32,000 nt of DNA, taken from positions 120,001 through 152,000 of the forward strand of contig JAWBCC010000001.1 of NCBI GenBank assembly GCA_038823825.1, read 5' to 3'. Under the pieces are notes generated by a model. The model was not told where the DNA came from. It saw only the letters and a program-made list of their open reading frames with translations, and searched no databases. Made by a program: the position numbers and the translations under genes. This DNA comes from Candidatus Hadarchaeales archaeon. GTDB taxonomy: Archaea > Hadarchaeota > Hadarchaeia > Hadarchaeales > Hadarchaeaceae. Shown piece by piece: positions 15,829 through 32,000 of this stretch. The first letter of the stretch is position 1. Each line of letters opens with the position of its first letter.

Positions 15829-16644
15829 TCATTTGATAGCTCCGCGCGTGAGGCCCATTATCAGATACCTCTGGAAGATAAGAAAGACCACCAAAAGCGG
15901 AATCGAGGCTAGCAAAACGCCCGCAGCCAAAAGCGGATAATCTGGAGCTCTTCCGCCTATTCCGGCCAAAGTCGCTAAGCCATAGACGAGAGTCGTGTCA
16001 GGATACTCGAGCATGAAAGACGGAAGTATAAAGTCGTTGTATGGGACCAAGAACGCCATAAAGGCTATCACTCCTAGAGCCGGTTTTGCGAGGGGAAGTA
16101 TTACTTTTACGAAAGTCTTGAAGTGTCCGGCTCCGTCCATAATCGATGCTTCTACGAGTGTTTTCGGTATGGTATCCATGTATCCCTTTAAGAACCAAGT
16201 ATAGAACGGGACACTTGAACCCGCATAGATGAGTATCATTCCGGCCAAGTTAACTAAACCCAAGCTGCTCATTATCTTGTATATAGCGACCATTCCGACC
16301 AGCGAGGGGAACATTTGAGCAAAAAGCATAAAGGCAAGCATCTGTTTACGCCCGGCAAACTTCATAAAAGAGAAGGCGTATGCTGCCGGACATATCATCA
16401 CAAAGGTTAGAATTATCGTTCCAAGACAGATTATAGCCGTATTCACCGCCCAAAGGATGAAGTGCTGCTCACGGAATAACTTCACGAAGTTTTGGAAAGT
16501 TATGGATTCGGGCATAAGGCTCGGCGGTATGAACGTGCTTCTGAGAGAGGCCGTAAATATAAAGAAGACCGGGAACAACACGGCCAAAACGACGATGATC
16601 AGCATAAAATGACTGAGCAAAATTTCCAGCTTCTCTTTCTTCAT
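15829..16644 (-). CDS. Sugar ABC transporter permease (MalG-like)
   Basis: 6 TM helices and the EAA loop EASIMDGAGHFKTFVKVILPLAKP. ATGA overlap with the upstream permease gene. Confidence 0.9.
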   Translation of the reverse strand: MKKEKLEILLSHFMLIIVVLAVLFPVFFIFTASLRSTFIPPSLMPESITFQNFVKLFREQHFILWAVNTAIICLGTIILTFVMICPAAYAFSFMKFAGRKQMLAFMLFAQMFPSLVGMVAIYKIMSSLGLVNLAGMILIYAGSSVPFYTWFLKGYMDTIPKTLVEASIMDGAGHFKTFVKVILPLAKPALGVIAFMAFLVPYNDFILPSFMLEYPDTTLVYGLATLAGIGGRAPDYPLLAAGVLLASIPLLVVFLIFQRYLIMGLTRGAIK

Positions 16645-17522: not shown

Positions 17523-17526
17523 AACA

Positions 17527-18756
17527 TCACCTTCTCTTCGCTATCGACTCTTTCATCTGTTGCACAGCCTCCTCCAACGTGGATGCAGGATCCTGCCCTA
17601 GGACGATCATCTTCAGAGCGTTTGTCCAAGGCGTCCACACACTGTCCATTTCAGGGATTTTGGGCATTATTATTCCATTCTCTATCTGGGCGAGAACTAT
17701 TCTAACCTCTTCCTTATTTTCCATTTCAGCAAGCACATCAAGTCTGCTTGGGATTCTCCAGCCGGCCTGATGCAGAGTTCTTTGGGAATTTTCACTACTG
17801 AGGAATTTCGCAAGATTCATCGCTGTTTCAAAGTTCTTGGATTTTGGGTTGACCATGCAGACTTGAACCCCCACAAACGTTTTCGGATATTCTCCGTTCG
17901 GGAGCTTCGGAAAGTTTGATATCCTATAGGTTATTCCCGCTCTTCTTATTTCCTCGAAGGCCCAAGGTCCATCGATTATCACAGCCGCCCTGCCCGCTTT
18001 GAAATACTCACGCACCGAGTAGGGATTAAGAGTAGTATCTATCGGTAGGACACCGTCCTTTACCATTTGCTGGATGAATCGTGCGCCATCAATGGCGCCG
18101 GGATTTGCGAGTCCTATATTTTCAACATTCTCTTCATCCCCGAAAACATATGCCCCGTAGCCCGACATAATCGGAAAAGAGTAATAAGGATCGACATGTG
18201 GATAATAGAAACCAAAGAAGTCAGGTCTTCTCACGGATTTCGCATAATTGAGAAGGTCCTCCCAGTCTTCAAAAGTGTTCTCAACCAAGCCAGAATTGTA
18301 AATTAAAACTAAGCTCTCCATCAGGCATGGAAAACCCCATATCTTGTTTTCATATGTTACCGCAGAAAGAGCCTTTTCAAAGAATTTGCTTTTCTCGCTT
18401 TCGGGGAAATATTCGTCCGTGATTGGGGCGATAACGCCCATTTCTGCAAACTCTCCTATCCAGTCATGTGGACCGAGCAAAACATCTGGTCCCTTTCCGA
18501 TGGGAACACCAACTCGGTATCTCGATCTTAGATCTTCGATGTTTGCTACCCAGACAACTCTTACGGTGGTTCCTTCTTCTTTCTCAAAGATTTTGACGAG
18601 ATTCTCAACAGCTTCGACTTCGCTCCTGACTAATCCAATCCAGAGCGTGATTTCACCTCTGGGTATTAGCATTTGTCTAGTAGGGATGAGGATTACAAAA
18701 GCAACAACTGCAAGCAACATATATGTGAAGAGCCCAGGTGTTCGACTCAACCTCAC
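17527..18756 (-). CDS. Extracellular sugar (maltodextrin-type) ABC substrate-binding protein, N-terminally anchored
   Basis: 409 aa family-1 SBP pattern (GPDVLLGPHDWIGEF; IIDGPWA) with an N-terminal hydrophobic anchor. It is the first gene of the E-F-G operon. The start is GTG 18756, or ATG 18720. Confidence 0.85.
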   Translation of the reverse strand: MRLSRTPGLFTYMLLAVVAFVILIPTRQMLIPRGEITLWIGLVRSEVEAVENLVKIFEKEEGTTVRVVWVANIEDLRSRYRVGVPIGKGPDVLLGPHDWIGEFAEMGVIAPITDEYFPESEKSKFFEKALSAVTYENKIWGFPCLMESLVLIYNSGLVENTFEDWEDLLNYAKSVRRPDFFGFYYPHVDPYYSFPIMSGYGAYVFGDEENVENIGLANPGAIDGARFIQQMVKDGVLPIDTTLNPYSVREYFKAGRAAVIIDGPWAFEEIRRAGITYRISNFPKLPNGEYPKTFVGVQVCMVNPKSKNFETAMNLAKFLSSENSQRTLHQAGWRIPSRLDVLAEMENKEEVRIVLAQIENGIIMPKIPEMDSVWTPWTNALKMIVLGQDPASTLEEAVQQMKESIAKRR

Positions 18757-18763
18757 ACCAAAA

Positions 18764-18785
18764 AATATTCAAAAATTTCAATATT
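18764..18785. promoter_or_regulatory. Imperfect 22-nt palindrome AATATTCAAAAATTTCAATATT in the malE-like/malK-like divergent promoter region
   Basis: 18 of 22 positions are self-complementary. It overlaps the candidate minus-strand TATA (18780-18787) and the TATA-to-start interval of the SBP gene. The region is AT-rich, so a chance occurrence is plausible. Confidence 0.25.
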
Positions 18786-18838
18786 AACTTTTTTGGATTG
18801 AGAGAAATTAATAAATCCCAGTTCTGTGTAAAAATTAT

Positions 18839-19930
18839 TTGATAAACTTGGCAAGCGTTACCCTGGAAAACGTCACCAAAAAATTTGGTCAAGTAACTGC
18901 AGTTGATAACGTTTCTTTAGAGGTTAAGGATGGGGAACTCGTTGTTCTTGTTGGGCCGAGTGGATGTGGAAAATCAACCTTGATCAGAATGATAGCAGGG
19001 CTTGAGACACCGGACGAAGGAAACATCTATTTAGATGATTTGCTTGTAAACGACTTGCCTCCCAAAGACCGGAACGTTGCAATGGTTTTTCAAGATTACG
19101 CTCTCTATCCACACATGACAGTTTTTGAGAATATGGCATTCGCTTTAGAGAATTTTGGATATGATGAGAGAGAAATTCGAAAGAGAGTCAAAGAGGCGGC
19201 CCATCTACTGGGAATCGAGAATCTTCTAGACAGGAAACCGGCGCAGTTATCTGGAGGTCAAAGGCAAAGAGTTGCACTTGGAAGAGCCATCGTTCGTGAA
19301 CCGAAAGTTTTCCTGTGGGATGAGCCGCTCAGCAATATTGACGCAAAACTGAGAGTCGAAATGAGGGCAGAACTGAGAAAGCTTCAGCGCAGGCTCAAGG
19401 TGACGACCATTCATGTTACGCACGATCAAGTCGAAGCAATGACAATGGCCGATAGGGTTGCCGTAATGAAGGACGGGAGGATAAGACAATTCGATTCACC
19501 GGAAAAAGTTTACAGCAAGCCTGCGGATGAATTCGTCGCGAGTTTCATAGGAAGCCCACCAATGAACTTCTTTGACTGTGTTTTGACGAGAAAGCGAGGA
19601 AAGCTCGTTATAGAGGCTGAAGAGTTTGTGTTGGATGTCCCAAGAGAACTGAAAGATATCCTCAAGGGTTTGGTTGGCAAGGAACTGAGATTTGGAATAA
19701 GACCCGAGGACATATGCTTTTCGACGAAGAAAGGCGGAATAAAAGCAAAGGTGGATGTTGTTGAGCCATTGGGAGCAGAAGTTCTTGTTCATCTTCTAAT
19801 CGGCAAATCTCCAGCCATGATGCGGACGGATCCGAAGAGTGCACCGAAACCTGGTGAAATGGTTTTACTCGAGTTCCCATCGGAGAAGTGGCACATCTTT
19901 GATAGAAAGACGACAAAGGCGATTATCTGA
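18839..19930 (+). CDS. Sugar ABC transporter ATP-binding protein (MalK/MsiK-like) with a C-terminal TOBE-like regulatory domain
   Basis: Walker A GPSGCGKST, signature LSGGQRQR, Walker B VFLWDEPLS, H-loop HVTHD. Candidate starts are TTG 18839 or TTG 18848 (MASVTLENV). Confidence 0.95.
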   Translation: MINLASVTLENVTKKFGQVTAVDNVSLEVKDGELVVLVGPSGCGKSTLIRMIAGLETPDEGNIYLDDLLVNDLPPKDRNVAMVFQDYALYPHMTVFENMAFALENFGYDEREIRKRVKEAAHLLGIENLLDRKPAQLSGGQRQRVALGRAIVREPKVFLWDEPLSNIDAKLRVEMRAELRKLQRRLKVTTIHVTHDQVEAMTMADRVAVMKDGRIRQFDSPEKVYSKPADEFVASFIGSPPMNFFDCVLTRKRGKLVIEAEEFVLDVPRELKDILKGLVGKELRFGIRPEDICFSTKKGGIKAKVDVVEPLGAEVLVHLLIGKSPAMMRTDPKSAPKPGEMVLLEFPSEKWHIFDRKTTKAII

Positions 19931-22900
19931 GACTGAGAAGGATCTTTAAGATTATGCCAGCCACCACTGCGATTCCGATACTTACTCCTATGAATGTGTA
20001 GTCGAGCTTGGGTTTTTCTTCGAATATTTCGACCGAATATCCCAAATTGTTCTCTCCTCGATCCCAGACGGTTTCACCTCCGCCAATGGCTTTAATCATG
20101 AATGTGAGTTTTACATCCGCGAATGGTCCCAATTCTGCGATCCACCACCCGGTGGTTGGATCGATTTGCATCTGCGTTTCTCCGCTACTACCTTTGTTGG
20201 TCCACCAAACGACAAAAACGCTTTCAATTGTCCCTTCGGTCTGGCATGAAACTCGCACGAAATTACCAAAAAGAACATAGCTCGTGTTTTTTATTTTTAG
20301 ACCGACAGGAGGCAAAGGAGTTCTAACTTTTACAGTCAGAGTTTTCCTCTTTTCTAAAGATCCAGACTTAGCCGTGACTGTTATCTCATAATCTCCGTCT
20401 GAGGTTTCCCTTCCAACCGATATGAACAGGCTTGCCGTGAATGGCGGATAGCCATTTTCAGGATAGACCGAGAGCAGAAAACCTGACGGACCGGAAATTT
20501 TGAGTTCCACCAGATTTTCATACACCCCCAAATTTTCGATTCTTAACTCCACAGTTTGATTTTCACCTGCTCTCGCCTGAATCTGAGATGGTATGATTTC
20601 AAGTCGGAAGTCTGCCACGGGCAGCGCGACCGTATAGTATACAATGACTGTTTTTGTATTAACATCTTTCAGATTTAACCTAAGTTTTTCTCCGTCGACG
20701 TGCACTATGTCGTTTTCGCCATCTATTTCCACTGTTACAGCAGGAAGTCCAGCCGGTAGGGTCAGCTCAAGCAGAATCTGTTCATTTTGCGCAGAGATAT
20801 CGACCTTTTGCATATTTTCATTCCAAGAGTAACTGACCTTCAGCGGCTTCCCTCTCACAATAGTTCTGCCAGAAAGGAGATTCGTGTTCTCAAGAGGTTT
20901 AGGAGATATAACTGTATAGTTCTCGAACGGCTTTACCCCGAGGAACACTTGATAATACGTTCTCAAAAATTCTGCAATCGACCAAGCCTGCGTCCAGCAA
21001 CCTTTTGGCTTATCTCTATCACCATCGCTAATCTCGTGAATGGCCCCAACGTTTGCTTGCTGGAGTAGTTGCTTTTTGAATAAATGAAAGAGATGTGAAG
21101 CTTCCCCAAGCTTATTCGATTCTGCCATGACTTCTATCGCAGGACCAGATAACCACGGCCAGACATCTCCGTTGTGATATGCGGGTGGATCCCACGTTTG
21201 ATCGTCAATTCCAACGTAAAGCGGATCCGCCGGATTTAGCGATCTTACACCATGCGCCGCTATCAGTCCGCTTGAGATCGCAGTTTTAATGGCTTGCTCT
21301 ATTTTCTCTGAGGGAAGCAAATTCTCGGCTACGGAGATAGCTATTAGAGCGTTCGGTCGGATTCTAGCCACTGCCTGCCCTGCGGGTGTAATATAATCGT
21401 TGAGGTATCCTGTCGATTGGTTCCAGAATTTAGCTTCAAAGTTCTTACGCGCATTTTCGGCTATCTCCCACCACTTCGCACTCTTTTGATTTTGTCCCAA
21501 AATTCCAGCAATTTTTGCCGCATCATCCAGAGCCTTTATCCACAAAGCCTGTATCTCTACGGGTTTTCCTATCCTAGGATCTCTCGAAGTGTCCATCCAA
21601 GTTTCCAAATTGTCACTTCTGACGAAGCCGTCTGTTGGATCACCGTAGACCGCCCAAGTTCTCTCGATCGCTCTTTCGATCACCGGGAAGATGTCGGAGA
21701 GAAATCCACTATCTCCACTGTACAGATAATACTCATAGCATCTGATGATGAACCACAAGGTGGCGTCGGAGGTCGTATAGGCGCGCCAGTCACCAATCCT
21801 GTTCGGAATGCGACCGTCGCTTTCCCTCTGAAATCCTGCGAAGCTTAGGATTATCTCTTTTGCTTCTTGAAGTCTACCAGTAACGAGTGCAGACCCGCTC
21901 AGACTTATGAAAGTGTCTCTTCCCCACCCCTGATTGAACCAAGGAAGACCAGCCCATATCACTTTTCCAAATTCTTCATTCACGATCAAACTGTCAACGG
22001 AGGCTACAGCAAGCTTTAGAGCTTTTGTTAATGAAGGATCCGAGGTCTGAATCTCGCATGACTGTATGAGCGAAAGAATTCTGGATCTCTTTGTGTCCAG
22101 CAGGTCGGAATAGCTATTGATCGCCGATCTCGCTAAAGATATGGCTTCCTGAGAGGTTTTACCAACAGCAATGGCAAATAGGACATCCCGAGCATTTTCA
22201 ACGACAAGAGTTCCACTTCTATAAACGTTCCAAAAAATCCGTTGTTTGTTTTCTATTCTCATTTCATCGAAAGGATATTCGTGCGTGGCGCTTCCCCCTC
22301 CCGACTGATAGGTGGCTCCTTCTCGACAGGTGATTGCCACATATGCCACATTCTCTCTGTCGGACGCCCTAGAATGAAGTACAAGCACACCATTCTCGAA
22401 GTATTCCTCGTCGCTATATGAGATATCCAGAAATGGTGTGAATCTGATGGTAGACTGTGAATCTCCTGCGTATCTTACGAAGAAAACGTTTAGGTTATCT
22501 GGAAGGAAAATTTCTTCGGTCCAGCCACCGGCGGATCTGAGCAGTTTGTAAGGCAGATATGTAAAAGTTGATGGGGCGGGCGTAATTCTTTGCCCGCCGA
22601 TTTCGGTTGCCCAGCTTTCAACGACTCGTTTATTCTTCACAGTAAAACCGGAAAACTGCGAAATTGGCTCACCAGTAGTTGAAATCCAGAGAAAAGAGTC
22701 TTTCTTGTTTGTGAAAGTGCAAGCCAAAGACCATTCCGAGTTACCGGTGATTGAAAATTCGGGTTCACCGAATTCTATTGATGAGTTGAGCCACATCGGA
22801 AAATTCTCAAAGATTCCCAGTTCGCTTGGAACTTCTCCGGACATCCCCACAGATTTTACCGCGTTTTCGGCAGCTTGGAGCGCAAGATTCAGGGCTGTGT

Positions 22901-24191
22901 AGCACTTCTGTGCCCAATCCTGAGAATCCCAGAACCAGTAGCAACTTGTTTCTGCCATCGCAAAATATCCCCAAGCCCTTTTCATGTAGCTCTCTGCCAG
23001 TGATCCGTAAATTTGAGAATCGATTTGTTTGAGTTGTTGTCTAACCTCCGCAACTCTTTGCCACATCTCTCTGTCTAGCTGGCTACCGGCCCAAGTCGAG
23101 AGGTCTAATCTTGCTCCGCCTACTCCCCAGGAGCCGGTTTTTATCTTTATCACGTCGGTCGGGCGGTAGACTTCACGCAGATACTCGCTGATAGTGGTTA
23201 ACCTTATCCAACCTTCATTTTTGATTCGCTCAAGAAATCCTGGCCAGAACCAGTCGTAATATCCGGCTCCTGCCTGTCGCATCCATCCGTTTTCACCATC
23301 GCTTAGTATGACTACGAGGAAAGGTTTGCTCGGATCGTTGTTCCACTGCTGAATTATTCTGAGTTGATCAATCAGGTAAGCCGGATCGAAGCCATCCTGC
23401 TGGTTCTGACCGAGCCAGTGCTCCCTTGGAATGACGATTATAAAAACTCCAGCATATTCGGCTAGGTGCGGCCTGAAAGCCAGCTCACAGTATGTTCTGG
23501 ACCATTTGGTGTTATCCGATCCAATGATGTGAAAGCTGTCGAAAAAGACCCACTCTATTCCAAAACTTTTCAACCATGGGATTATATTTTCGCTGAAGGC
23601 GAGTTCGGGTGGAAAGAATCCCTTCGGAGTAACTCCAAAATATTTCTTACACCACGCCAGCATCTTCTGGAAGTGGATTTGTGCATCCTCTCTTTCGATT
23701 AGCGGGAATATTGGGTGATAGAAACCATCGATCACGAGTTCCAATCTACCTGTTTGAATCGCCCGTCTGTACTCGTCCCAGATACCCGCCAGACTTGTGT
23801 CTTTTGAAACGAAATTCTCTTTTGCCAGAAAATCGAGTTGCCACAGAAGCGAACCCGTAAAGTGGACAGTTATCTTTGCTTCCGGATAGGTGTTTACGAG
23901 CGTCGCTGGCCTAAGATAGCAGAAGCCACACTCTTCGAAGACATCTTTAACAGTCATGCTTGAACCAGGACTCGTTGGACTGTTGAAATAATCCCAGCCG
24001 ATCTGCATTCCAGGATGGTAGATCGGTTGGTGAAAATGAACAGCGAATGCGATGTAAAGGGGGACTTGTGTCTGGCTTTTTGATGGTCTTGGGAGTAGTG
24101 CGACAGCACCCAAAAGGACAAGTATAACCAACAGTATCGCAAGTCGCATTCGAATGTTTGTATTATCTCTTGCTGGTAATAAATGTTTCAT
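19923..24191 (-). CDS. Cell-surface multidomain glycoside hydrolase: GH57 domain + amylo-alpha-1,6-glucosidase (GDE_C-like) domain + Ig/NEW3-like domain + putative starch-binding module + C-terminal TM anchor
   Basis: Signal peptide (LAILLVILVLLGAVALLPRPSKSQ). GH57 conserved regions are all present: HFHQPIY (24018-24038), GRLELV, FPPELAFS (Glu codon at 23604-23606), LSDGENGW (Asp codon at 23298-23300), AETSCYWFW. GDE_C motifs: GLPWFNQGWGRDTFISLSG (about 21909-21929) and YHNGDVWPW (21153-21179). C-terminal module: WW..GWW..WDRGENNLGYSV (about 20022-20303). TM plus basic tail at the 3' end. Confidence 0.85.
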   Translation of the reverse strand: MKHLLPARDNTNIRMRLAILLVILVLLGAVALLPRPSKSQTQVPLYIAFAVHFHQPIYHPGMQIGWDYFNSPTSPGSSMTVKDVFEECGFCYLRPATLVNTYPEAKITVHFTGSLLWQLDFLAKENFVSKDTSLAGIWDEYRRAIQTGRLELVIDGFYHPIFPLIEREDAQIHFQKMLAWCKKYFGVTPKGFFPPELAFSENIIPWLKSFGIEWVFFDSFHIIGSDNTKWSRTYCELAFRPHLAEYAGVFIIVIPREHWLGQNQQDGFDPAYLIDQLRIIQQWNNDPSKPFLVVILSDGENGWMRQAGAGYYDWFWPGFLERIKNEGWIRLTTISEYLREVYRPTDVIKIKTGSWGVGGARLDLSTWAGSQLDREMWQRVAEVRQQLKQIDSQIYGSLAESYMKRAWGYFAMAETSCYWFWDSQDWAQKCYTALNLALQAAENAVKSVGMSGEVPSELGIFENFPMWLNSSIEFGEPEFSITGNSEWSLACTFTNKKDSFLWISTTGEPISQFSGFTVKNKRVVESWATEIGGQRITPAPSTFTYLPYKLLRSAGGWTEEIFLPDNLNVFFVRYAGDSQSTIRFTPFLDISYSDEEYFENGVLVLHSRASDRENVAYVAITCREGATYQSGGGSATHEYPFDEMRIENKQRIFWNVYRSGTLVVENARDVLFAIAVGKTSQEAISLARSAINSYSDLLDTKRSRILSLIQSCEIQTSDPSLTKALKLAVASVDSLIVNEEFGKVIWAGLPWFNQGWGRDTFISLSGSALVTGRLQEAKEIILSFAGFQRESDGRIPNRIGDWRAYTTSDATLWFIIRCYEYYLYSGDSGFLSDIFPVIERAIERTWAVYGDPTDGFVRSDNLETWMDTSRDPRIGKPVEIQALWIKALDDAAKIAGILGQNQKSAKWWEIAENARKNFEAKFWNQSTGYLNDYITPAGQAVARIRPNALIAISVAENLLPSEKIEQAIKTAISSGLIAAHGVRSLNPADPLYVGIDDQTWDPPAYHNGDVWPWLSGPAIEVMAESNKLGEASHLFHLFKKQLLQQANVGAIHEISDGDRDKPKGCWTQAWSIAEFLRTYYQVFLGVKPFENYTVISPKPLENTNLLSGRTIVRGKPLKVSYSWNENMQKVDISAQNEQILLELTLPAGLPAVTVEIDGENDIVHVDGEKLRLNLKDVNTKTVIVYYTVALPVADFRLEIIPSQIQARAGENQTVELRIENLGVYENLVELKISGPSGFLLSVYPENGYPPFTASLFISVGRETSDGDYEITVTAKSGSLEKRKTLTVKVRTPLPPVGLKIKNTSYVLFGNFVRVSCQTEGTIESVFVVWWTNKGSSGETQMQIDPTTGWWIAELGPFADVKLTFMIKAIGGGETVWDRGENNLGYSVEIFEEKPKLDYTFIGVSIGIAVVAGIILKILLSLR

Positions 24192-26239
24192 TTCCTTTTC
24201 ATCAGTGCAACGGCGGCAACGATTATCACAATCACAATCACACCGATGATCGGAAGAACTGGAATCTCGGTGGGTTTTTCTACGGGCGCTTCGACCTCCG
24301 CCACGAGCGGAACCGCAGGCACGACCGTGTATCCCTCAACGCCAAAGGCGTTCGTGTTGAATCCCGAGAGCACGGTTCTTTGATCACGACCAGGTGGCAC
24401 AATTATGTCTAGAACGTTCGGTGAGACACCGACGGCATATGCGGCCGAGTCAGCGCCCAAAATCTTCCACTCTCTCTCCGCTGGAGTTGCTTCGTTTTCT
24501 GGAAGCGCCAATCTCCAGCTCCAATATTCGCTGAAGCCATCCTGTGAGCCAGAAATGATTACCGCGTGCCATTTGTAATCAGTTGGAAGATCACCTAGGT
24601 ATTGTCTGACAATACTTTTTGGCAAGGAAGCCAAGACCGTTCTCGAAGCCAAGTCGCAGGAGACGGTAAGAACTCCAGTTATGACATCATATTGTCCTGC
24701 GAAGACCACCCAATTCCTTCTAGCCTTATGTGGCTTGTAGAATCCGGTTATTTGAATTCCGAAATCCCAAGCGTGGGCTTCTTCTATTTTAATTCTCGGC
24801 CCCTCCCTGCTAAATGGTATGGTCTCTCCTCCAGGCTTACAATCCACCCAGACTTCCACGAGTTGATAGGAGAAACCAGCTTCTCCGCTCCACACGTTTC
24901 CTCCAAGCCTGTCGGCGGCGAACTCCACGGCGAAATAATAGTTCTGCGCATCCTCGAAAAACATGAATTTTGTGATATCAAACAGACCCGTCTTGCCTTG
25001 GAAATATGCGCTTTCCGGATATCTGTAGGTGCCAGGTCCGTAATCATCACCCACTGGGTCGGTAATTTCAACAACTCTTTCTGCAACCCATATCTTGAGC
25101 GGAGCAGTGTGCGAAATTGTGCCGTCGCTTGCTCTAACGGTGATTTCATAGATGCCCGAGGTGGTTTCTTTTGCAACTGAGATCGTCAAAGTTGAGGTAA
25201 ACGGTGGGGTCCCACTGGTTGGACTGAAGTTTACACTAACCCCACTGGGCAATCCTGTTGCTTCAAGCGAAACCGTCTGTGAATATCCGAGGAATCTTTT
25301 AACATTAACAGAAACCTGTGCAGACTTTCCGACCTGAATAATCCTGCTGCTAGGTGTTACCGCGATTGTGAAATATGGTCTTCCCGGAATTGGTCCCACG
25401 GCTGGAACCCTAGCATAGGTCCCAGTGTTTTCATTGAATCCGAGGAGAACACTCTTCTGAGTCATACCTTCAGGAACAAGTATGTCCATCGGTCTCGGTT
25501 CGACTTTTGCAGCCATTACCCTTGATTGCCAAGTTGCTCTGGCAGCATCTGGATCGGGTAACCAGCGAATGAAGATGAGAGATTTTTCAACCATGGCTAC
25601 CTTTCTCCACGCTCCAAGGTTGTCAGAGCCGACGAGTACTGTGCAATACCAAGGAGCTGATTCACTTGGGGATCCAACGACGGATTTTGGCACGCTTATT
25701 TGAACTTTCCCAGTTGCTTGGTTAGCTGTTACGAAGACATCGAAAACTTCTCCCGTTTGCCATCTTCCATGTGTGTTGTATCTTCCGCCGTAATTTCTCG
25801 GCCAGCCGTTCGCTCTCACCGCCCACTTCCAGCCATTCTGAATTACGACCTTCGCCGAATCCTCTGTTTCCGTGTCCGAGACGGGGATGACCGACGTGGC
25901 AGTCCCTGTTCCATCGTTTACGTAAATCTCTATGAGTTGAATGGAGAATCCATGTGGAGCACCATCTGGGTTCCCGCCGAGATTTTTGAATGTGAGTTCG
26001 AAGATTATGTTTGTTCCATCATCCTTGACCGCAAAGTAAGTCAGATCGAAAACTCCAGGAGCAAACTTGGGGTCCTCCGGATACATGAAGTCGTCAATTC
26101 CGTGGTCATCATCCTCCGGATCCTCCATCTCAAACAGGACGTTTACAGCTTGAGCTTTCGACGGTCTCGGTAGAATTATGAGCGAGAGCATCAGAAAGCC
26201 CACAATCAATATACATATTTCTCTCTTCATTCCCTCCAT
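24188..26239 (-). CDS. Cell-surface, apparently non-catalytic protein with two glucodextranase-C-like (SLH-like binding module) domains flanking an Ig/NEW3-like domain; C-terminal TM anchor
   Basis: Signal peptide (ICILIVGFLMLSLIILPRPSKAQA). Copy 1 (about 25395-26137) has EDPEDDDHGIDDFMYPEDPKFAPGVFDLTYF. Copy 2 (about 24310-25075) has TDPVGDDYGPGTYRYPESAYFQGKTGLFDITKF. The copies end in ILVPEGMTQKSVLLGFN and IIVPPGRDQRTVLSGFN. No glycosidase motifs were recognised. The C-terminus is IIGVIVIVIIVAAVALMKRK. Confidence 0.6.
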   Translation of the reverse strand: MEGMKREICILIVGFLMLSLIILPRPSKAQAVNVLFEMEDPEDDDHGIDDFMYPEDPKFAPGVFDLTYFAVKDDGTNIIFELTFKNLGGNPDGAPHGFSIQLIEIYVNDGTGTATSVIPVSDTETEDSAKVVIQNGWKWAVRANGWPRNYGGRYNTHGRWQTGEVFDVFVTANQATGKVQISVPKSVVGSPSESAPWYCTVLVGSDNLGAWRKVAMVEKSLIFIRWLPDPDAARATWQSRVMAAKVEPRPMDILVPEGMTQKSVLLGFNENTGTYARVPAVGPIPGRPYFTIAVTPSSRIIQVGKSAQVSVNVKRFLGYSQTVSLEATGLPSGVSVNFSPTSGTPPFTSTLTISVAKETTSGIYEITVRASDGTISHTAPLKIWVAERVVEITDPVGDDYGPGTYRYPESAYFQGKTGLFDITKFMFFEDAQNYYFAVEFAADRLGGNVWSGEAGFSYQLVEVWVDCKPGGETIPFSREGPRIKIEEAHAWDFGIQITGFYKPHKARRNWVVFAGQYDVITGVLTVSCDLASRTVLASLPKSIVRQYLGDLPTDYKWHAVIISGSQDGFSEYWSWRLALPENEATPAEREWKILGADSAAYAVGVSPNVLDIIVPPGRDQRTVLSGFNTNAFGVEGYTVVPAVPLVAEVEAPVEKPTEIPVLPIIGVIVIVIIVAAVALMKRK

Positions 26240-26258
26240 CTAAAGTATTCTTCTGCGG

Positions 26259-26275
26259 TTTTTATATCTTTCGAA
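26259..26275 (-). promoter_or_regulatory. Candidate BRE+TATA (minus strand: CGAAAG-ATATAAAA) for the 24188-26239 gene
   Basis: The TATA is centred about 25 nt upstream of ATG 26239, which implies a leaderless or near-leaderless mRNA. Confidence 0.35.
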
Positions 26276-26295
26276 AAAGTTTCCAGCTTCAGGCG

Positions 26296-26307
26296 AAACT
26301 TTTATTA
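26296..26307 (+). promoter_or_regulatory. Candidate BRE+TATA (CGAAAC-TTTTATTA) for the giant + strand ORF
   Basis: The TATA is centred about 28 nt upstream of GTG 26332, which implies a leaderless or near-leaderless mRNA. It mirrors the minus-strand element in the same 92-nt intergenic region. Confidence 0.35.
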
Positions 26308-26331
26308 GGAATATATGGAAAAAATTAAAAG

Positions 26332-29300
26332 GTGACGTTGAAAAAAATCTTTCCTGCATTTGTTTTTTTGGCGCTTTTCTTTATGGCGCCATTTGCTTCT
26401 TCGTCTAAAATTTTGGACGTTGGAGCGGCTGCTTCACCTTCGACATATCGGGCGCCCGATTGGGTAATGAACGCAGTTTTTTATCAGATAATGGTCGACC
26501 GTTTTTACAACGGAGACCCGTCTAATGATCCGGACAATAACACCCTTCTCCTTCGCTCCTGGACTAATATAAACGGTGTCACTTTCCCAGATCTCTATGC
26601 TAGAAAAATGCGCTGGACGGAGGATGTTGAAACAAACGTACTCTGGCCGGACGATTATGGAAACTTGAGATATGCACCTACACTCGGAAGAGACTATTAT
26701 GGCGGCGATTTCAAGGGGATAATGGACAAACTTCCTTATCTTGAGAATCTCGGAATAACAGCAATATACTTTAATCCGATTCATGACGGTCCGCACTTCC
26801 ACGGTTATACGGTTGAAAACTATGAATCAGCCAACAAGTTTTATGGCGGGCTCGACATGTTCAAACAAATGCTCTCCGCGCTAAAGGAGAAGGGAATAAG
26901 GGTGATTCTTGACGGTGTGTTCAACCACACGAGTTGTACACATCCATGGTTTGACCGCGAAAATAGATTCCCAGATTATCTGGGTGCATACGAAAGTCAA
27001 AATTCACCATATTTCAGTTGGTACAAATTTTGGCAATGGCCTCTGAACTATGAGGGATGGAACAATTTTTCTCATGTTCCGCAGCTCCAACTTACTGAAG
27101 GATACAAAGACTACCTTTACCGAAGTTCAAACAGTCTGTTGAAATACTGGAACGATATAGGAATAGACGGCTGGCGTCTCGATGTCGCCATGCAGATGAA
27201 AGATAGATTTGGCTGGGCGTTCTGGCGGGAATTCAGTCAAGCCTTCAGCCAGCTGAATTCAGAGGGATACCTCGTCGCGGAACCAGACCATGGAACGGCA
27301 GCTCAGCCAGATTACGTTACTCAGGGTTACCTAGACGGCGTCATGAACTATGCTTGGATGCACGCGGTTATAGACTGGGTTAATGGAACGGCTAGTCCGA
27401 GCAGCTTCGCGGGGAGACTGGAGTACATAAAGAATGCATATCCGGCAGATGCTTTCTACACACAGCTTAACATTCTGAGTTCGCATGACGATCACAGACT
27501 GAGAACGCGTGTTGGTGGAAGAATTGACAGGGTTAAGCTTGCCGTGATTTTCCAGATGACATACCCAGGCGCCCCGTGCATATGGTATGGGGATGAGGTC
27601 GGGATGACGAGCGACTATCCGAGGGGGAGTGGAACAGTCAGAGATGCGGATCCGTTTACTAGAAGACCGTTCCCCTGGCCAGAGCTAGGATACCCGGTCC
27701 CTGAACAACCAGACGTTCCGAACTGGGATATCTTCAGGCACTACCAAAACTTGATTTCGATAAGAAAGAGTTATCAAGTCCTTAGAACTGGAACGGTCGA
27801 GACTCTGATGACGGATGATGGTAAGAAGATTTTGGCACTATTCCGAAAACTTCCAAATCCAAGTTTAACAAAATATTCGAACTGGAGAACTGAATATGCG
27901 GTTCTCGTCTACAACAGTGGCGCTTCCCCGCAGAGCGTTACTCTCAATCTCACCGGAAAAGTTCCCAATGGTACGGAGCTCGTCGATGTTCTAAATGGAA
28001 ATCGAAAGTATACGGTAACAAACGGAACTGTTTCGCTAACTGTCGAAAACATGTGGGCAGCGATTCTGGTTTACACATCAAACCAACCACCGGTTGCAGA
28101 TTTCACGTTTTCTCCCACTTCTCCCGCTCCAGGTGAAACCGTGCAGTTTACTGATAACTCGAGAGATCCAGATGGGACAATAGTTTCCTGGCTATGGGAT
28201 TTTGGCGACGGGACTTCGAGCACCCAGCGTAATCCAACAAAGGTCTATACAGCATCCGGAACATACACAGTAAAGCTGACGGTGACTGACGATGGAGGCG
28301 CGAGCGCGACAGTCTCCAAATTGGTGGTTGTGTCAGAAGCTCCGGCGCCACCTCCGGGAGTCAAGCCAACAACCTTAACAATAGATCCTACCTCCTTTTC
28401 GCTAGCTTCAGGAGCTTCGAGAACTCTGATGGCGATTTTGAAGGATAACGAAAACAATCCGGTCGCAGGAAAGACGATTTTGTGGTCGGCAACTGTCGGG
28501 AGCATATCGTCCTCCTCCGTCACAGATTCAAACGGAATGGCTGCCGCAACCTACACGGCCCCATCTGTTACCGCTCAAACTTCAGTGACCATTACCGCAA
28601 CTTTTCAAGGTGACAGTCAGTATGCTTCATCAACCGGTCAAAGCATTGGAAGCATCTCGCCCATATCGGCTCAGTTGAGTCTGAGACCAATACCATCCAC
28701 TATAGCGGGTTCTGACATTATACTCAGCGGGGTGGTCGAAGATCAAGCCGGTAATCCTATACCAGGAGCATCTTTGAAAGTTCTCATAAATGGTCAGGTC
28801 GTTCAGACGGCAACGGCTGGTGGAGATGGAAGTTTCAGCATAGCCGTCACACTTCCTCCTGGCTCAAGCAGTCTAAGGCTAGAAGCCTACAGCGGAGAAG
28901 GAGAACTTCTTGCGTCATTCTCCCAAAATGTTACAACTTCTGCTGAATATTCTCCACCCACGGGAATTGACAGTGGAATGATTGTAACATATGGCAGTAT
29001 TCTTTCTGCGATCGGCTTGGCAATAGGTGTTCTTATCGGCAAAATCCGGATAACGGGCAAACTCTTCTCACTAATTTTTGCAGTCTTTCTTCTGCTTTCT
29101 TTGGTTCATACAGTTCCAGTCAATGCGCCCACTAGGACCGTTGATGGTTCTCCAGCCGACTGGACTGGCACCCCGCCAACAACTGTAAACACGTTTACTG
29201 TTTCCGCCGGGGAATTCATATGGAAGGATGCGCAAGGCGACGAGCGTACAGACCTGAATAATTGGCAACCGGATAGAAGAGTGGATCTTTTAGAGTTCAG

Positions 29301-32000
29301 AATCACTGCCGATACACAATATATATACTTCATGGCAAAAATGGTCGATATCGACATAGAATCTGGAAGTGGAGCTCCGTGTGTCCAAGTTGCAGTGGAT
29401 ACCGATAGGATAGCCGGATCAGGGGAGAACTGGTTTGGTGGATGGTCAGACACAGCGACGAGCAACTCCGCGCGTTGGGAGCGTCTGATTATGACGAGAT
29501 TTGGGAGCGGATCACAGAGGGTTTATGTGTTTAATACAAGTTGGGTGGATCAGGCGACATCAGATGACACTCAAGCGATATCTGCCCAAAATGAAACAAT
29601 CGAGTTCAGAGTTGGATGGGCGAGACTTGGAGTTTCGCCACCTTGCACCCTGAGGTTCACGGTGATAACTCACAGACAGAATACCGACGACAATTCTGTG
29701 GACATTTCTAATACCTCCGATGCTCTTGATGCGATAACAACAACCGGACCAACCACTTGGAACGAGGTCCAAGATCAAATAGTCGATTATTATTTTGACG
29801 TGAGTTTTGCTTCGAATGGCGAGGTCGTAGGATCTGTCCCTGTAGGCGCTTCAATAGATAGCGATATCTGGTGGGAGGGCGTTTTACATGATCAAGACAA
29901 TTCCTTCTACTTCTCACCCCAAGGGGAAACGACAGTACTCCCCCCATTGCTTGATAGAGGAAGGCGCATTCTATATGATCAAAACGTAACTGTCAGGCTT
30001 AGAACAAATGAGAACGACCTGAGCGAAGTTTGGCTTAGAATCTGGTGGGAGAACATTTATGAAAACAATGTTGTTGAAAATGCCGCCGTGAGATATCGGA
30101 TGTCAAAAGAAAGCTCGGATGGGACGTACGAATACTGGGTTACCACAATTCCCGCTCCGGGAAGGCCGGCAAGAATGTGGTATAGGTTCTATCTCGTTGA
30201 CAACGGCGGAACGGGCACATACAGCTGGGACATCTGGCAAAATCCGGTGAATATAGGAACGCAGGTGGACATCGATAGTTACGCCGATGACACTTTTCCG
30301 AGGAACGGAGGAACAGGAAAAATGTATGATTTTCCGCAAACTAGAACGGAGAGCACAGTTCAGCCTGTGGACAACTATGACTTCATGATCATCTTTTACG
30401 AAAACATACCGCCAGCCGCTGTTTCTCTTATTTCGCCAGAGAACGACGCTTTGCTGACATCGGTTCCGACCTTACGCTGGACGGCGTCAGTAGATCCGCA
30501 ACCATCCTCCGGTCTCGGATATCGCCTTCAGATTTCTAAAGTTTCCGACTTTTCCACAACTGTTGTTGATATATATGTGAAAGAAAACTCTTATCAGCCG
30601 AGCATCGGAGAAGGAGTATACTTCTGGAGGGTTAGAGCAGAAGACTATGATGGAAACGCGAGCAACTGGTCGGAGGTCAGACGCTTTCGGCTAGATCTCG
30701 GACCACCACCGGCTCCAACGCCGATTTCTCCGCCCGATAACTTCTGCACAAAAGAAAATCGAATAACCTTAAGCTGGACGAGAGTTCCGGATGCATCAGA
30801 GCCGGTTCTGTATCGTGTCGCTCTGAGTGATGATGCAGGTTTTCCATACGAAAACTTCACATCCGGCTGGGTCATGGAGAATAGCTGGCAGGTTGAGCTT
30901 CCCGAGGGAATATGGTACTGGAGAGTTTGCGCGAAGGACAACCTCGACCAGATCGGTGAGAATTCCGTGACCAAAAGATTTATCGTCGACATTACTCCAC
31001 CACAACCACCAGAGATCTTGTATCCTGAAAATGGTGAAAGCGTGAATGTGAGGAGACCAACACTCAGATGGTCGACTGTGACCGACGTAAGCATGCCTGT
31101 GACGTACGATCTTCAACTGAGTGGCTCCCCAACTTTCTCTACCCTTATCGTAGACAATTCTGGTCTCACGGAGAACTCGTATACTCTCACAATCGACCTA
31201 GAGGAAAGGGTTTACTACTGGAGAGTGAGAGCGAAGGACAATGCCGGAAATCTGAGTGATTGGGTTGTGTCCTCTTTCATTGTTGATCTCACGGCGCTAC
31301 CAGCCCCCACGGGCCTCTCCCCCACGGGTTTCATCAACACGAAAAGACCGCAGTTCCGTTGGTCTCCTGTACAAAGCATTTTTGATGTGGTGTACATCTT
31401 TGAACTCGATGATAGCCAAGACTTCTCAAGTCCTCTCGTGGTCGAAAACGCTCTAACAGATACTTCTTACCAGCTTCAGTTTGATCTATCAGATGGAAAA
31501 TATTATTGGAGGGTAAGAGCGAAGACAGAATTAAAAACGGGACCAGCGGCCAGCGCATCCTTTACGGTAGATACTATACCCCCATCAGCTCCAGAGATTT
31601 TGACATCCTTGCCGGCCAGCACTAGGGTTAGGAGATGGATGATAGTTGGAACAGCGGAGGCGAATGCAACCGTTCAGTGTTTTGTTAACGATTCCCTAGT
31701 TGCGGAAAATGTGGCAGAGAATGGAAGCTTCACGCTGTGGGTTACCTTCCAACTCGGACAGAATAGCGTAAAGTTCAGAGCCGTTGACAGAGCAGGAAAC
31801 GCGAGCGTCTTTACGTCTTCGATCGGAATTAAGGTTACCGGAGGACTCGGAATTCGTCTGACTGCAGACCGACTCCAAGCAGGAGTTGAGCGTGCCTTCG
31901 CACTAGTCGGATATCAAACAAGCATTCAAGAAATAAGAGTGAAGACAAATAAGGATGTCGCTGCTCCGGCGATTTACGTCGAAGAGCTTATGCCCTGGGA
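26332..32000 (+). CDS. Giant secreted multidomain alpha-glucan-active protein (partial, 3' end beyond the window): signal peptide, GH13 catalytic domain, PKD, 2 Ig-like domains, TM hairpin, binding-module-like domain, Alpha-amylase_N/CBM34-like domain, 4 FN3-like repeats, Ig-like domain
   Basis: Frame +1 has no stop from the TAA at 26326-26328 to nt 32000 (1889 codons, verified by hand). GH13 regions: FYQIMVDRFYNGDPSND, VILDGVFNH, GIDGWRLDVA, YLVAEP, LSSHDD. PKD domain (28096-28332): WDFGDGTSS..GTYTVKLTVTDDGG. The ORF is missing from the supplied track. The start codon is uncertain (GTG 26332 or TTG 26338). Confidence 0.88.
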   Translation, partial: MTLKKIFPAFVFLALFFMAPFASSSKILDVGAAASPSTYRAPDWVMNAVFYQIMVDRFYNGDPSNDPDNNTLLLRSWTNINGVTFPDLYARKMRWTEDVETNVLWPDDYGNLRYAPTLGRDYYGGDFKGIMDKLPYLENLGITAIYFNPIHDGPHFHGYTVENYESANKFYGGLDMFKQMLSALKEKGIRVILDGVFNHTSCTHPWFDRENRFPDYLGAYESQNSPYFSWYKFWQWPLNYEGWNNFSHVPQLQLTEGYKDYLYRSSNSLLKYWNDIGIDGWRLDVAMQMKDRFGWAFWREFSQAFSQLNSEGYLVAEPDHGTAAQPDYVTQGYLDGVMNYAWMHAVIDWVNGTASPSSFAGRLEYIKNAYPADAFYTQLNILSSHDDHRLRTRVGGRIDRVKLAVIFQMTYPGAPCIWYGDEVGMTSDYPRGSGTVRDADPFTRRPFPWPELGYPVPEQPDVPNWDIFRHYQNLISIRKSYQVLRTGTVETLMTDDGKKILALFRKLPNPSLTKYSNWRTEYAVLVYNSGASPQSVTLNLTGKVPNGTELVDVLNGNRKYTVTNGTVSLTVENMWAAILVYTSNQPPVADFTFSPTSPAPGETVQFTDNSRDPDGTIVSWLWDFGDGTSSTQRNPTKVYTASGTYTVKLTVTDDGGASATVSKLVVVSEAPAPPPGVKPTTLTIDPTSFSLASGASRTLMAILKDNENNPVAGKTILWSATVGSISSSSVTDSNGMAAATYTAPSVTAQTSVTITATFQGDSQYASSTGQSIGSISPISAQLSLRPIPSTIAGSDIILSGVVEDQAGNPIPGASLKVLINGQVVQTATAGGDGSFSIAVTLPPGSSSLRLEAYSGEGELLASFSQNVTTSAEYSPPTGIDSGMIVTYGSILSAIGLAIGVLIGKIRITGKLFSLIFAVFLLLSLVHTVPVNAPTRTVDGSPADWTGTPPTTVNTFTVSAGEFIWKDAQGDERTDLNNWQPDRRVDLLEFRITADTQYIYFMAKMVDIDIESGSGAPCVQVAVDTDRIAGSGENWFGGWSDTATSNSARWERLIMTRFGSGSQRVYVFNTSWVDQATSDDTQAISAQNETIEFRVGWARLGVSPPCTLRFTVITHRQNTDDNSVDISNTSDALDAITTTGPTTWNEVQDQIVDYYFDVSFASNGEVVGSVPVGASIDSDIWWEGVLHDQDNSFYFSPQGETTVLPPLLDRGRRILYDQNVTVRLRTNENDLSEVWLRIWWENIYENNVVENAAVRYRMSKESSDGTYEYWVTTIPAPGRPARMWYRFYLVDNGGTGTYSWDIWQNPVNIGTQVDIDSYADDTFPRNGGTGKMYDFPQTRTESTVQPVDNYDFMIIFYENIPPAAVSLISPENDALLTSVPTLRWTASVDPQPSSGLGYRLQISKVSDFSTTVVDIYVKENSYQPSIGEGVYFWRVRAEDYDGNASNWSEVRRFRLDLGPPPAPTPISPPDNFCTKENRITLSWTRVPDASEPVLYRVALSDDAGFPYENFTSGWVMENSWQVELPEGIWYWRVCAKDNLDQIGENSVTKRFIVDITPPQPPEILYPENGESVNVRRPTLRWSTVTDVSMPVTYDLQLSGSPTFSTLIVDNSGLTENSYTLTIDLEERVYYWRVRAKDNAGNLSDWVVSSFIVDLTALPAPTGLSPTGFINTKRPQFRWSPVQSIFDVVYIFELDDSQDFSSPLVVENALTDTSYQLQFDLSDGKYYWRVRAKTELKTGPAASASFTVDTIPPSAPEILTSLPASTRVRRWMIVGTAEANATVQCFVNDSLVAENVAENGSFTLWVTFQLGQNSVKFRAVDRAGNASVFTSSIGIKVTGGLGIRLTADRLQAGVERAFALVGYQTSIQEIRVKTNKDVAAPAIYVEELMPW
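28978..29127 (+). other. Internal TM hairpin: an anchor-like TM (MIVTYGSILSAIGLAIGVLIG), the basic loop KIRITGK, and a signal-peptide-like segment (LFSLIFAVFLLLSLVHTVPVNA) inside the giant ORF
   Basis: Two hydrophobic stretches of about 15-21 residues are separated by a loop with three positive charges. The second ends in V-N-A followed by Pro. Confidence 0.6.
30409..31578 (+). repeat. Four tandem protein-level repeats (98, 98, 99 and 95 aa) of an FN3-like beta-sandwich module inside the giant ORF
   Basis: Unit boundaries are 30409, 30703, 30997, 31294 and 31578. Each unit carries P-x-L-(R/S)-W near its start, and then (Y/W/F)-(Y/F)-W-R-V-(R/C)-A-(K/E)-(D/T) and, in three of the four units, G-(N/E)-x-S. 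Each ends in F-x-(V/L)-D followed by a Pro-rich linker. The DNA copies are strongly diverged. Confidence 0.7.

Follow-up and report, generated by a model that had tools for sequence, protein, structure and literature searches.

In the Thermococcales, a maltodextrin ATP-binding cassette (ABC) importer is linked to a secreted or anchored enzyme of glycoside hydrolase family 57 (GH57). In this Mdx cluster (Mal-II; P. furiosus PF1938-PF1933), malK lies near the EFG operon and not within it, and the amylopullulanase gene is typically found between mdxEFG and mdxK (PMC2246101). The GH57 enzyme is found with Glucodextran_C modules (PMC10074034). In the Sus system and polysaccharide utilization loci (PULs) of Bacteroides and in the Ruminococcus bromii amylosome, genes for an importer, for enzymes at the cell surface, and for binding proteins without catalytic activity likewise stand together and serve starch foraging. 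Here we analyzed a 32,000-nucleotide stretch of archaeal DNA (the window; GenBank assembly GCA_038823825.1, contig JAWBCC010000001.1, positions 120,001 to 152,000) from Candidatus Hadarchaeales archaeon, an uncultured organism from a hot environment. Positions 15829 to 32000 of the window hold an alpha-glucan island of seven open reading frames (ORFs), the last of which is still open at 32000. We consider it likely that this island encodes a system for the capture, degradation, and import of alpha-glucan of the starch, glycogen, or pullulan type. The description that fits it best is that of a known arrangement, in which amylolytic enzymes at the surface go with a maltodextrin ABC importer, carrying new architectures in a poorly known archaeal phylum. 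Two of these architectures are unusual: a near-unique fusion of a GH57 unit with GDE_C, a catalytic domain of glycogen debranching enzymes (GDEs), and a double surface protein joined by a membrane hairpin.

The locus shares with the Thermococcales cluster the linkage of importer and GH57 gene, the position of malK outside the EFG operon, the accompanying Glucodextran_C modules, and a thermophilic archaeal host. In contrast, malK here separates malEFG from the enzyme genes and is transcribed away from malEFG, GH57 is fused to GDE_C, Glucodextran_C is on a separate coupled protein, and there are two further surface enzymes of family GH13. The best Protein Data Bank (PDB) matches of the substrate-binding protein (SBP) are Thermotoga MalE1/2 (~1e-64) and the Thermoactinomyces vulgaris cyclo/maltodextrin-binding protein (2zyk; 2.6e-49), and by these scores it is nearer to the Thermotoga proteins than to MdxE of P. 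furiosus (1elj; 6e-39). The only matches to the Thermococcales TGM operator had three mismatches and were fewer than expected by chance. An earlier note, made from the sequence of the window, had described the locus as an expanded and rearranged Thermococcales cluster. With a different gene order, a bacterial-MalE-like SBP, and no TGM operator, descent from that cluster is not supported, and the locus appears to be an analogue of it.

Other parts of the island also have bacterial relatives. The nearest non-Hadarchaeal relatives of the GH13 catalytic head are Chloroflexota enzymes (Anaerolineae and Caldilineales; 31 to 36% identity, 1100 to 1900 amino acids [aa]). These large amylases are likewise multidomain and extracellular, with arrays of carbohydrate-binding modules (CBMs) and Fn3 and immunoglobulin-like (Ig-like) domains, but they are bacterial, their accessory domains are CBM20, Fn3, and Alpha-amylase_N, and we noted no transmembrane (TM) hairpin or PGF-pre-PGF domain in them. 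The nearest relatives of a DOMON-like module in the island include bacterial proteins with type IX secretion (T9SS) sorting tails (46 to 52% identity). Taken together with the bacterial-like SBP, these relationships suggest that the island is of mosaic origin. The earlier likening of the locus to a PUL or an amylosome holds for function and is an analogy only: we found no Pfam domains of SusC/SusD, cohesin, or dockerin in any island protein, and here single C-terminal TM helices would tether the proteins and an ABC transporter would import.

The ORF map reproduced the positions and strands that the earlier note had assigned throughout the island, and its GH13, GH57, and GDE_C assignments all received strong Pfam support (Table 1).

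Table 1. Features of the alpha-glucan island and of its continuation on a contig of the same species (L008). Positions are those of the window unless a contig is named.
Feature	Position	Strand	Evidence or remark
malG-like ABC permease, 271 aa, ~6 TM	15829..16644	-	BPD_transp_1 4.5e-19; hydropathy
malF-like ABC permease, 293 aa	16641..17522	-	BPD_transp_1 1.4e-17
malE-like maltose/maltodextrin-binding protein, 409 aa, N-terminal membrane anchor	17527..18756	-	SBP_bac_8 and SBP_bac_1 (1e-31)
malK-like ATPase, 363 aa from TTG 18839	18839..19930	+	ABC_tran 2.3e-38, OB_MalK, TOBE_2; NCBIfam UgpC/MalK subfamily
1422-aa surface enzyme (fusion): signal-like segment, GH57 unit, GDE_C unit, three Ig-like beta-sandwich domains, TM anchor and basic tail	19923..24191	-	Pfam; hydropathy
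Fusion tail: three Ig-like beta-sandwich domains (aa 1100-1395) and C-terminal TM (aa 1401-1419)	19935..20894	-	AlphaFold2 (AF2) mean pLDDT 79
GDE unit, aa 477-1100: N-terminal beta domain and (alpha/alpha)6 GDE_C catalytic domain	20892..22763	-	PF06202; limits from P0130 and P0132
GH57 unit, aa 18-466	22794..24140	-	PF03065 1e-31; limits from half-only relatives P0131 and P0134
683-aa non-catalytic surface protein	24188..26239	-	PF09985 2.4e-90, 302.5 bits, 2 stretches
Divergent intergenic region between 683-aa gene and giant gene, 92 bp	26240..26331	.	Perfect 9-bp inverted repeat inside
Giant surface ORF, at least 1889 aa in window, 2020 aa in full (P0010, 99% identical)	26332..32000	+	Pfam; hydropathy
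GH13 catalytic region, aa 38-580, neopullulanase/TVAI-like	26443..28071	+	PF00128 1.4e-54
Internal membrane hairpin: TM1 (aa 884-902), loop GKIRITGK, TM2 (aa 907-925) ending VNA/P	28981..29106	+	Hydropathy
Third Glucodextran_C/CBM9-like (DOMON-like) beta-sandwich module, aa 930-1175	29119..29856	+	BLASTP, AF2, Foldseek
CBM34-like module (Alpha-amylase_N), aa 1205-1298	29944..30225	+	PF02903 5.9e-07 on isolated segment; aligns to TVAI N-domain residues 18-104
Four ~95-aa Fn3/Ig-like repeats, signature '...PTLRW...YYWRVRA...'	30400..31581	+	Weak Pfam: Ig_Rha78A_N, Big_13, DUF4962
1162-aa protein, N-terminal anchor, fourth surface GH13 enzyme	L008:6410-9898		Just past window end
GT5 glycogen synthase, CBM48-GH13 (branching or debranching type), GH57-DUF3536, GH77	L008:9995-16435		Directly after 1162-aa gene

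The 1422-aa protein carries both halves of the fusion in one chain. Its Pfam matches are well above the family cutoffs, at 110.8 bits (cutoff, 21.2; aa 48 to 350) for PF03065 and at 262.6 bits (cutoff, 21; E value, 7e-78; aa 734 to 1077) for PF06202 (GH133-type), which aligns over model positions 5 to 367 of 367. In the GH57 unit, we found all five conserved regions (HFHQP, GRLELV, FPPELA, LSDGENGWMR, and AETSCYWFW), and the alignment pairs E196 with the nucleophile E123 and D298 with the acid/base D214 of the Thermococcus litoralis 4-alpha-glucanotransferase (1k1w). The acidic residues of CgGDE are D1078, D1241 (acid), and E1492 (base) (PMC4837477). In the GDE_C unit, the Asp of the WGRD motif, D759, aligns to CgGDE D1078. 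Across 150 homologues, D867 (in TWMD) and E1053 are each 99% conserved, and D867, E1053, and the QAWS motif together fall within 95 to 100%. Thus, the GH57 and GDE_C units look catalytically competent, as does the GH13 unit described below.

The GDE_C unit resembles eukaryotic GDE (AGL) and the archaeal-type GDE (TIGR01561; PDB 7vma) in its (alpha/alpha)6 domain with WGRD, TWMD, and E...QAWS. As in eukaryotic GDE, a glucan-active domain and a glucosidase are joined in one chain. Unlike in the eukaryotic enzyme, the partner here is GH57 and not a GH13-type transferase, and the protein is predicted to be extracellular and anchored rather than cytoplasmic. With GH57 and GDE_C in one chain, successive debranching steps would be coupled.

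To judge how rare the fusion is, we searched aa 1 to 1100 against 1.84 billion cluster representatives. Among the 150 matches listed, one representative (P0003, which stands for the cluster of the 1422-aa protein itself) spans both halves; each of the remaining 149 is confined to the GDE half (aa ~477 to 1100) or to the GH57 half (aa ~18 to 466). A search of 5.8 billion proteins returned four fusion sequences, and all those with a stated taxon were from Hadarchaeales or Hadarchaeota. Scanning 185,579 species-representative genomes (GTDB) gave one fusion locus, L009, at 63% identity. In Hadesarchaea GCA_030018345.1, the halves are separate genes on different contigs: P0005, of 791 aa, has GH57 followed by the same Ig-like tail and TM, and P0130 is a secreted GDE unit. 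Because the halves are separate in that genome, we concluded that the fusion is a lineage-specific event. Secreted or anchored GDE_C proteins themselves are not unique, and many relatives with signal peptides are found in KSB1 bacteria, Blastocatellia, and a Thermoplasmata archaeon. In the related Hadesarchaea metagenome-assembled genome (MAG), the GH57-only gene and a gene for a 915-aa surface GH13 protein are immediately preceded by a TnpB-like gene (OrfB_IS605/Cas12f1-like; L010:1692-5302), which hints at mobile elements near such loci.

It is possible, although we favor debranching, that the GDE_C unit is another kind of (alpha/alpha)6 exo-hydrolase, for instance one that is glucoamylase-like on alpha-1,4 ends or one that acts on trehalose or solutes of the glucosylglycerate type. 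In that case, the fusion would pair an endo- with an exo-enzyme for saccharification. Such an enzyme would fit the cross-matches of the GDE_C unit to MGH1-like, GH116, trehalase, and rhamnosidase six-hairpin families, its score under the archaeal GDE equivalog cutoff, and its relatives from KSB1 bacteria, Blastocatellia, and Thermoplasmata, all of which are uncharacterized. However, GDE_C is by far the best family (7e-78 versus 1e-11 or weaker), and the unit keeps the glucose-coordinating WGRD Asp and the PNxxG, TWMD, and QAWS motifs of GDE.

The last island ORF encodes a giant surface protein. From its N terminus, the first half has a signal-like segment, the GH13 catalytic domain, PKD, Big_1, and CarboxypepD_reg-like domains, a TM segment, and a short basic loop. 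The second half starts with a signal-like TM segment, which is followed by the Glucodextran_C/CBM9-like module, the CBM34-like module, the four Fn3-like repeats, Big_6, a PGF-pre-PGF domain, and a TM with a basic tail. Full-length matches of the giant protein are P0010 (99% identity) and P0011 (2017 aa; 72%). For P0012 (2112 aa), the best local alignment takes in 41% of the query, at 54% identity. The GH13 head carries the motifs DGVFNH, GWRLDVA, AEPDH, and SSHDDHR. Its best PDB match is T. vulgaris TVAI/neopullulanase 1 (1e-67), to which DGVFNH and the motifs of the Asp-Glu-Asp triad align (regions II, III, and IV), and its NCBIfam matches, maltodextrin glucosidase and cyclomaltodextrinase, are both under cutoff. 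TVAI is also extracellular and also has a CBM34, but it is a soluble protein of 637 aa in which CBM34 precedes the catalytic domain, as is characteristic of neopullulanases of this type. In the anchored 2020-aa protein, the catalytic domain starts at aa 38 and the CBM34-like module lies ~700 residues downstream of it, past the hairpin.

The hairpin is conserved in P0010, P0011, and P0012, and an A/V-x-A motif follows TM2 in all three. In P0012, the loop is long and Pro/Lys rich, and TM2 forms a full signal peptide with its own initial Met and the ending AQA. The same reading frame runs across the hairpin in two independent assemblies, L001 (GCA_038858875.1) and L008. The giant protein, which the earlier note had listed as a giant GH13 ORF, does contain a GH13 catalytic domain, but it appears to be a fusion of two surface-protein genes, one for an anchored GH13 amylase and one for an anchored non-catalytic protein, with the hairpin as the junction. 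Such a hairpin would set both halves outside the cell. The Pro at +1 in the giant protein and in P0011 argues against a canonical signal peptidase cut after TM2, as judged from what is known of bacterial signal peptidase I.

The module that follows the hairpin (aa 930 to 1175) had no Pfam match. By BLASTP, it matches a region of protein P0016 that overlaps the PF09985 match of P0016 (1e-18). Its AF2 model (pLDDT, 90.6) gave glucodextranase 1ug9 (1e-7) and the CBM9 structure 1i82 (1.8e-4) as the top Foldseek matches. Stand-alone relatives of the module (P0279 to P0299; 314 to 645 aa, 30 to 52% identity) lack Pfam coverage of it in every case. Among these relatives, some have bacterial T9SS Por_Secre_tail or lamin-tail domains, and one relative is encoded on an archaeal contig. 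The module is an undescribed secreted domain family, and transfer between domains of life is possible. Further downstream, the PGF-pre-PGF domain matches TIGR04213 at 64.7 bits (cutoff, 28; E value, 9e-18). The PGF tripeptide of PGF-CTERM/archaeosortase A substrates is absent from P0010, P0011, and P0012, although the TM and basic tail are present. We found no DNA-level tandem repeat behind the Fn3-like repeats.

The third large protein, of 683 aa, consists of a signal-like segment, Glucodextran_C module 1 (aa ~37 to 281), an Ig-like domain, Glucodextran_C module 2 (aa ~389 to 643), and a TM (aa 661 to 679). The two modules are 30% identical to each other (E value, 5e-24), and the protein matches the glucodextranase structure 1ug9 (1.2e-13). 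As the earlier note had observed, the 683-aa stop overlaps the 1422-aa start in an ATGA. The tandem arrangement that it called binding modules was also found; sugar binding by such modules is undemonstrated (PMC10074034). Glucodextran_C does occur in GH57 amylopullulanases, where kinetic data suggest that it recognizes alpha-glucan chains (PMC10074034). The fusion and the 683-aa protein have a near-identical signal C-region, (I/L)LPRPSK(S/A)Q (window 24093-24149 and 26162-26218), which suggests that the two leaders are processed alike or share a recent origin. In L001, the Glucodextran_C gene is called as two genes of 424 and 251 aa (L001:3433-5472, corresponding to window 24188-26239). The L001-window alignment has two indels, which may or may not lie within this gene, and the split reflects a pseudogene at the strain level or else a fault in the assembly.

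Transcribed away from the 683-aa gene, the giant gene is separated from it by a short intergenic region with a perfect 9-bp inverted repeat, AAAAGTTTC-N11-GAAACTTTT, at 26275-26303. By chance, 0 such repeats are expected, and we regard it as a candidate operator. It is present in the same-species contigs L001 and L008 and absent from the 72%-ortholog locus L007. We rejected an operator common to both divergent intergenic regions, since the malE/malK region has only AT-rich imperfect repeats and L007 lacks the repeat.

The remaining four ORFs encode what a CUT1-type MalEFGK importer consists of: an SBP, two BPD_transp_1 permeases, and an ATPase with the MalK OB/TOBE regulatory domain. The best NCBIfam match of the malG-like permease is MalG, under the equivalog cutoff. 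The malF-like permease is a short form without the large enteric P2 loop and matches MalF (1.4e-61) over model positions 264 to 516 only. The malE-like protein matches MalE (2.7e-66) and has a TM at aa 6 to 24 by hydropathy. All the NCBIfam equivalog scores were under cutoff, and maltose or maltodextrins are the probable substrate. For the malK-like gene, the true start is probably TTG 18848, which gives a 360-aa product beginning MASVTLENV; L001 carries a 360-aa call. Its 3' end overlaps that of the fusion gene by 8 nt. On the other side of the importer genes, the malG stop overlaps an ATG of the downstream gatB ORF (ATGA; window 15829-15832), and this housekeeping gene may be co-transcribed or translationally coupled with malEFG. 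The gatB start is placed later in other assemblies (455 aa versus 470 aa).

The topology of the large proteins was read from Kyte-Doolittle hydropathy scans. Consistently with the signal peptides and basic-flanked TM segments claimed earlier, each of the three begins with a signal-like segment and has near its C terminus a TM followed by a K/R tail. In the fusion, the signal-like segment is at aa 15 to 33 and the TM at aa 1401 to 1419, followed by the basic tail. The 683-aa protein has hydrophobic segments at aa 8 to 26 and aa 661 to 679. The giant protein has an N-terminal hydrophobic segment, a C-terminal TM at aa 1992 to 2010, and the extra TM pair at aa 884 to 925. The scans place the enzyme domains outside the membrane and point to type I surface tethering. 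At 1422, 683, and 2020 aa, the three proteins bear out the estimate of more than 4000 aa of surface protein.

From these data, we infer the following division of labor. The three large type I membrane proteins would be exported and held by their C-terminal TM anchors, with the enzyme domains outside. The TVAI/neopullulanase-like GH13 head would cut alpha-1,4 bonds and probably act on pullulan-type substrates also. The GH57 unit would be a retaining endo- or maltogenic-type hydrolase. The GDE_C unit would be an inverting (alpha/alpha)6 exo-glucosidase related to amylo-alpha-1,6-glucosidase and would trim the branch stubs that GH57 exposes. The three Glucodextran_C/CBM9-like modules and the CBM34-like module may hold the polymer, or they may hold the enzymes in the envelope. 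The membrane-anchored MalE-type protein would capture the released maltodextrins for import by MalFGK2, and the cytoplasmic GH77, GH57, and GH13 genes just past the window would provide for their processing. The genes of such a system would presumably be co-regulated.

The core of the island is conserved. The Glucodextran_C protein, the fusion, and the convergent malK are syntenic in three species (the window, L007, and L009) at 63 to 100% identity, and full-length fusion orthologues at 64 to 65% identity exist. L007 also carries the giant GH13 gene, as a 72% ortholog, and the 6.4-kb L009 contig ends before the position at which the giant gene would lie. L007 has an extra 203-aa Gly-rich membrane-anchored ORF (L007:9217-9828) between the Glucodextran_C and giant genes, and a 2050-aa NosD/beta-helix protein (L007:1-1518) takes the place of malEFG.

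Several observations weigh against a system for alpha-glucan capture, degradation, and import. The core of L007 has no malEFG next to it, and we identified no regulator or conserved operator at the locus. Glucodextran_C is no proven CBM, and carbohydrate binding has not been demonstrated for the family (PMC10074034). The DOMON-like module has stand-alone relatives whose gene neighborhoods show no relation to alpha-glucan genes, and genomic context was rejected as support for a glucan role of the module. Foldseek on the AF2 model of the fusion tail returned generic Ig/Fn3-like tandem matches and no specific CBM. In the GDE_C unit, D867 and E1053 are probably equivalent to CgGDE D1241 and E1492, a correspondence drawn from motif position and not from direct alignment, and the unit scores 164.1 bits against the archaeal-type GDE model TIGR01561, below its cutoff of 364.15. 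In the five-motif scheme for GH57, motif five ends in F-W in maltogenic amylases and in W-W in amylopullulanases (PMC6037648). Motif five of the fusion ends in F-W, the maltogenic-amylase fingerprint, and no specificity is assignable to the unit; its sole amylopullulanase-type PDB match is weak (9kyq/9jlq, 1.5e-5).

Two further results concern the tail of the fusion. The GH57-only relative P0005 carries the same tail by alignment. From 'WW...WDRGENNLGY' in the last Ig-like domain, we considered a starch-binding CBM (CBM20/25-like) and rejected it, as there were zero Pfam matches at E values of ≤1.

A bolder interpretation of the same proteins is a multienzyme surface starch-degrading assembly built on an undescribed principle. 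The 2020-aa product would be a polyprotein, an anchored GH13 amylase plus an anchored binding or scaffold protein, threaded by a stop-transfer and signal peptide hairpin and perhaps cut by signal peptidase. The fusion would serve as an extracellular debranching machine, and the DOMON-like modules would dock components to the envelope or to each other. We regard this interpretation as unlikely.

Still somewhat less likely is a specialized system, directed at cyclodextrins or pullulan and not at bulk starch, like the cyclodextrin route of Thermococcus and Archaeoglobus, with a neopullulanase/cyclomaltodextrinase-type GH13 enzyme and a transporter for cyclo- or branched dextrins. Indeed, the GH13 head best matches neopullulanase TVAI, cyclomaltodextrinase, and MalZ-type enzymes, and the SBP matches the T. 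vulgaris protein 2zyk at 2.6e-49. Yet the SBP matches binders of linear maltodextrins better, the pairing of GH57 with GDE_C points to a branched polymer, and no cyclodextrin glucanotransferase was found in the window or L008.

The alpha-glucan island, which had been put at 16 kb, does not stop at the window end. L008 overlaps window 25961-32000 at 99.4% identity and runs on for ~10 kb. It first encodes the 1162-aa protein, which combines a giant-type Fn3-like repeat, a domain of the alkaline-phosphatase/phosphodiesterase/sulfatase superfamily, a GH13 catalytic domain, and a weak CBM20 match. This unusual pairing of domains might act on phosphorylated alpha-glucans. Because L008 continues the island, the alpha-glucan neighborhood covers at least 26 kb and joins extracellular degradation to cytoplasmic glucan metabolism.

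This continuation bears on whether the surface enzymes remodel or recycle an extracellular or envelope alpha-glucan of the cell's own, with the Glucodextran_C/DOMON-like modules as envelope attachments. The island leads straight into genes for glycogen synthase, branching enzyme, and GH77, Glucodextran_C was first described as SLH-like (Pfam title) and its sugar binding is unproven (PMC10074034), and the stand-alone relatives of the module are unlinked to glucan genes. However, the adjoining maltodextrin importer suits foraging better, we saw no glucan export machinery, and the GT5, GlgB, and GH77 proteins have no signal sequences, as in an ordinary cytoplasmic glycogen set. We judge such recycling quite improbable and favor capture and import of alpha-glucan.

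Six public contigs (from NCBI GCA_038858875.1, the JGI hot-spring samples 3300022544 and 3300008000, and three Logan runs) match the window at 99.5 to 99.7% DNA identity. All six stop within or beside the large surface-protein genes, and the window is more complete than each of them. The ends of these contigs (L001 to L006) and the start of L008 fall in or near those genes at window ~24300-29700. Two contigs of JGI 3300022544 meet at window ~25961-25982, which suggests strain heterogeneity or assembly difficulty. Such breaks, the two indels and divided Glucodextran_C gene call in L001, and the separate GH57 and GDE genes of a related MAG might invite the view that the fusion and the 2020-aa ORF are assembly or frameshift artifacts joining neighboring genes, but this is hardly credible and we rejected it, since six independent assemblies all yield the identical 1422-aa product, diverged full-length fusion orthologues (64 to 65% identity) share the architecture, and the giant ORF is continuous in P0010, P0011, and P0012 (99, 72, and 54% identity), which are from different samples.

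The 1422-aa protein is identical to P0001, which NCBI names 'MAG: amylo-alpha-1,6-glucosidase [Candidatus Hadarchaeales archaeon]'. The locus is thus already public, but with automatic annotation only. We found no published account of it in the literature on Hadarchaeota or Hadesarchaea with starch or amylase. This agrees with the earlier statement that no characterized equivalent was known, as the near-identical loci in public MAGs carry machine annotation alone.

Hadarchaeota occur widely, both in the subsurface and in hot springs. To our knowledge, the only cultured members are hydrocarbon degraders. The phylum is summarized, from MAGs, as mostly heterotrophs on sugars and amino acids (PMC10811742). 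A concrete polysaccharide-foraging apparatus would refine this generic picture of sugar heterotrophy, and it suggests starch or glycogen as an enrichment substrate. The fusion would be an independent parallel to eukaryotic GDE, with two debranching steps per chain. Predicted to be extracellular and probably thermostable, it merits interest as a catalyst for saccharifying starch in one step. The TM hairpin within the giant protein would be an unusual route for delivering partners together in stoichiometric amounts. Current understanding is not overturned by these findings; they extend a known strategy with new architectures.

The left half of the window encodes TBP, aTrm56, the PAN proteasome ATPase, diphthamide synthase, GatB, and further housekeeping proteins. 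Scans for tRNAs, Rfam families, and DNA tandem repeats gave no match in the window or the island. Between the genes for an HflX-like GTPase and PAN lies a gene for a 582-aa transglutaminase-core protein (window 11434-13182), and it is kept in all the same-species loci.

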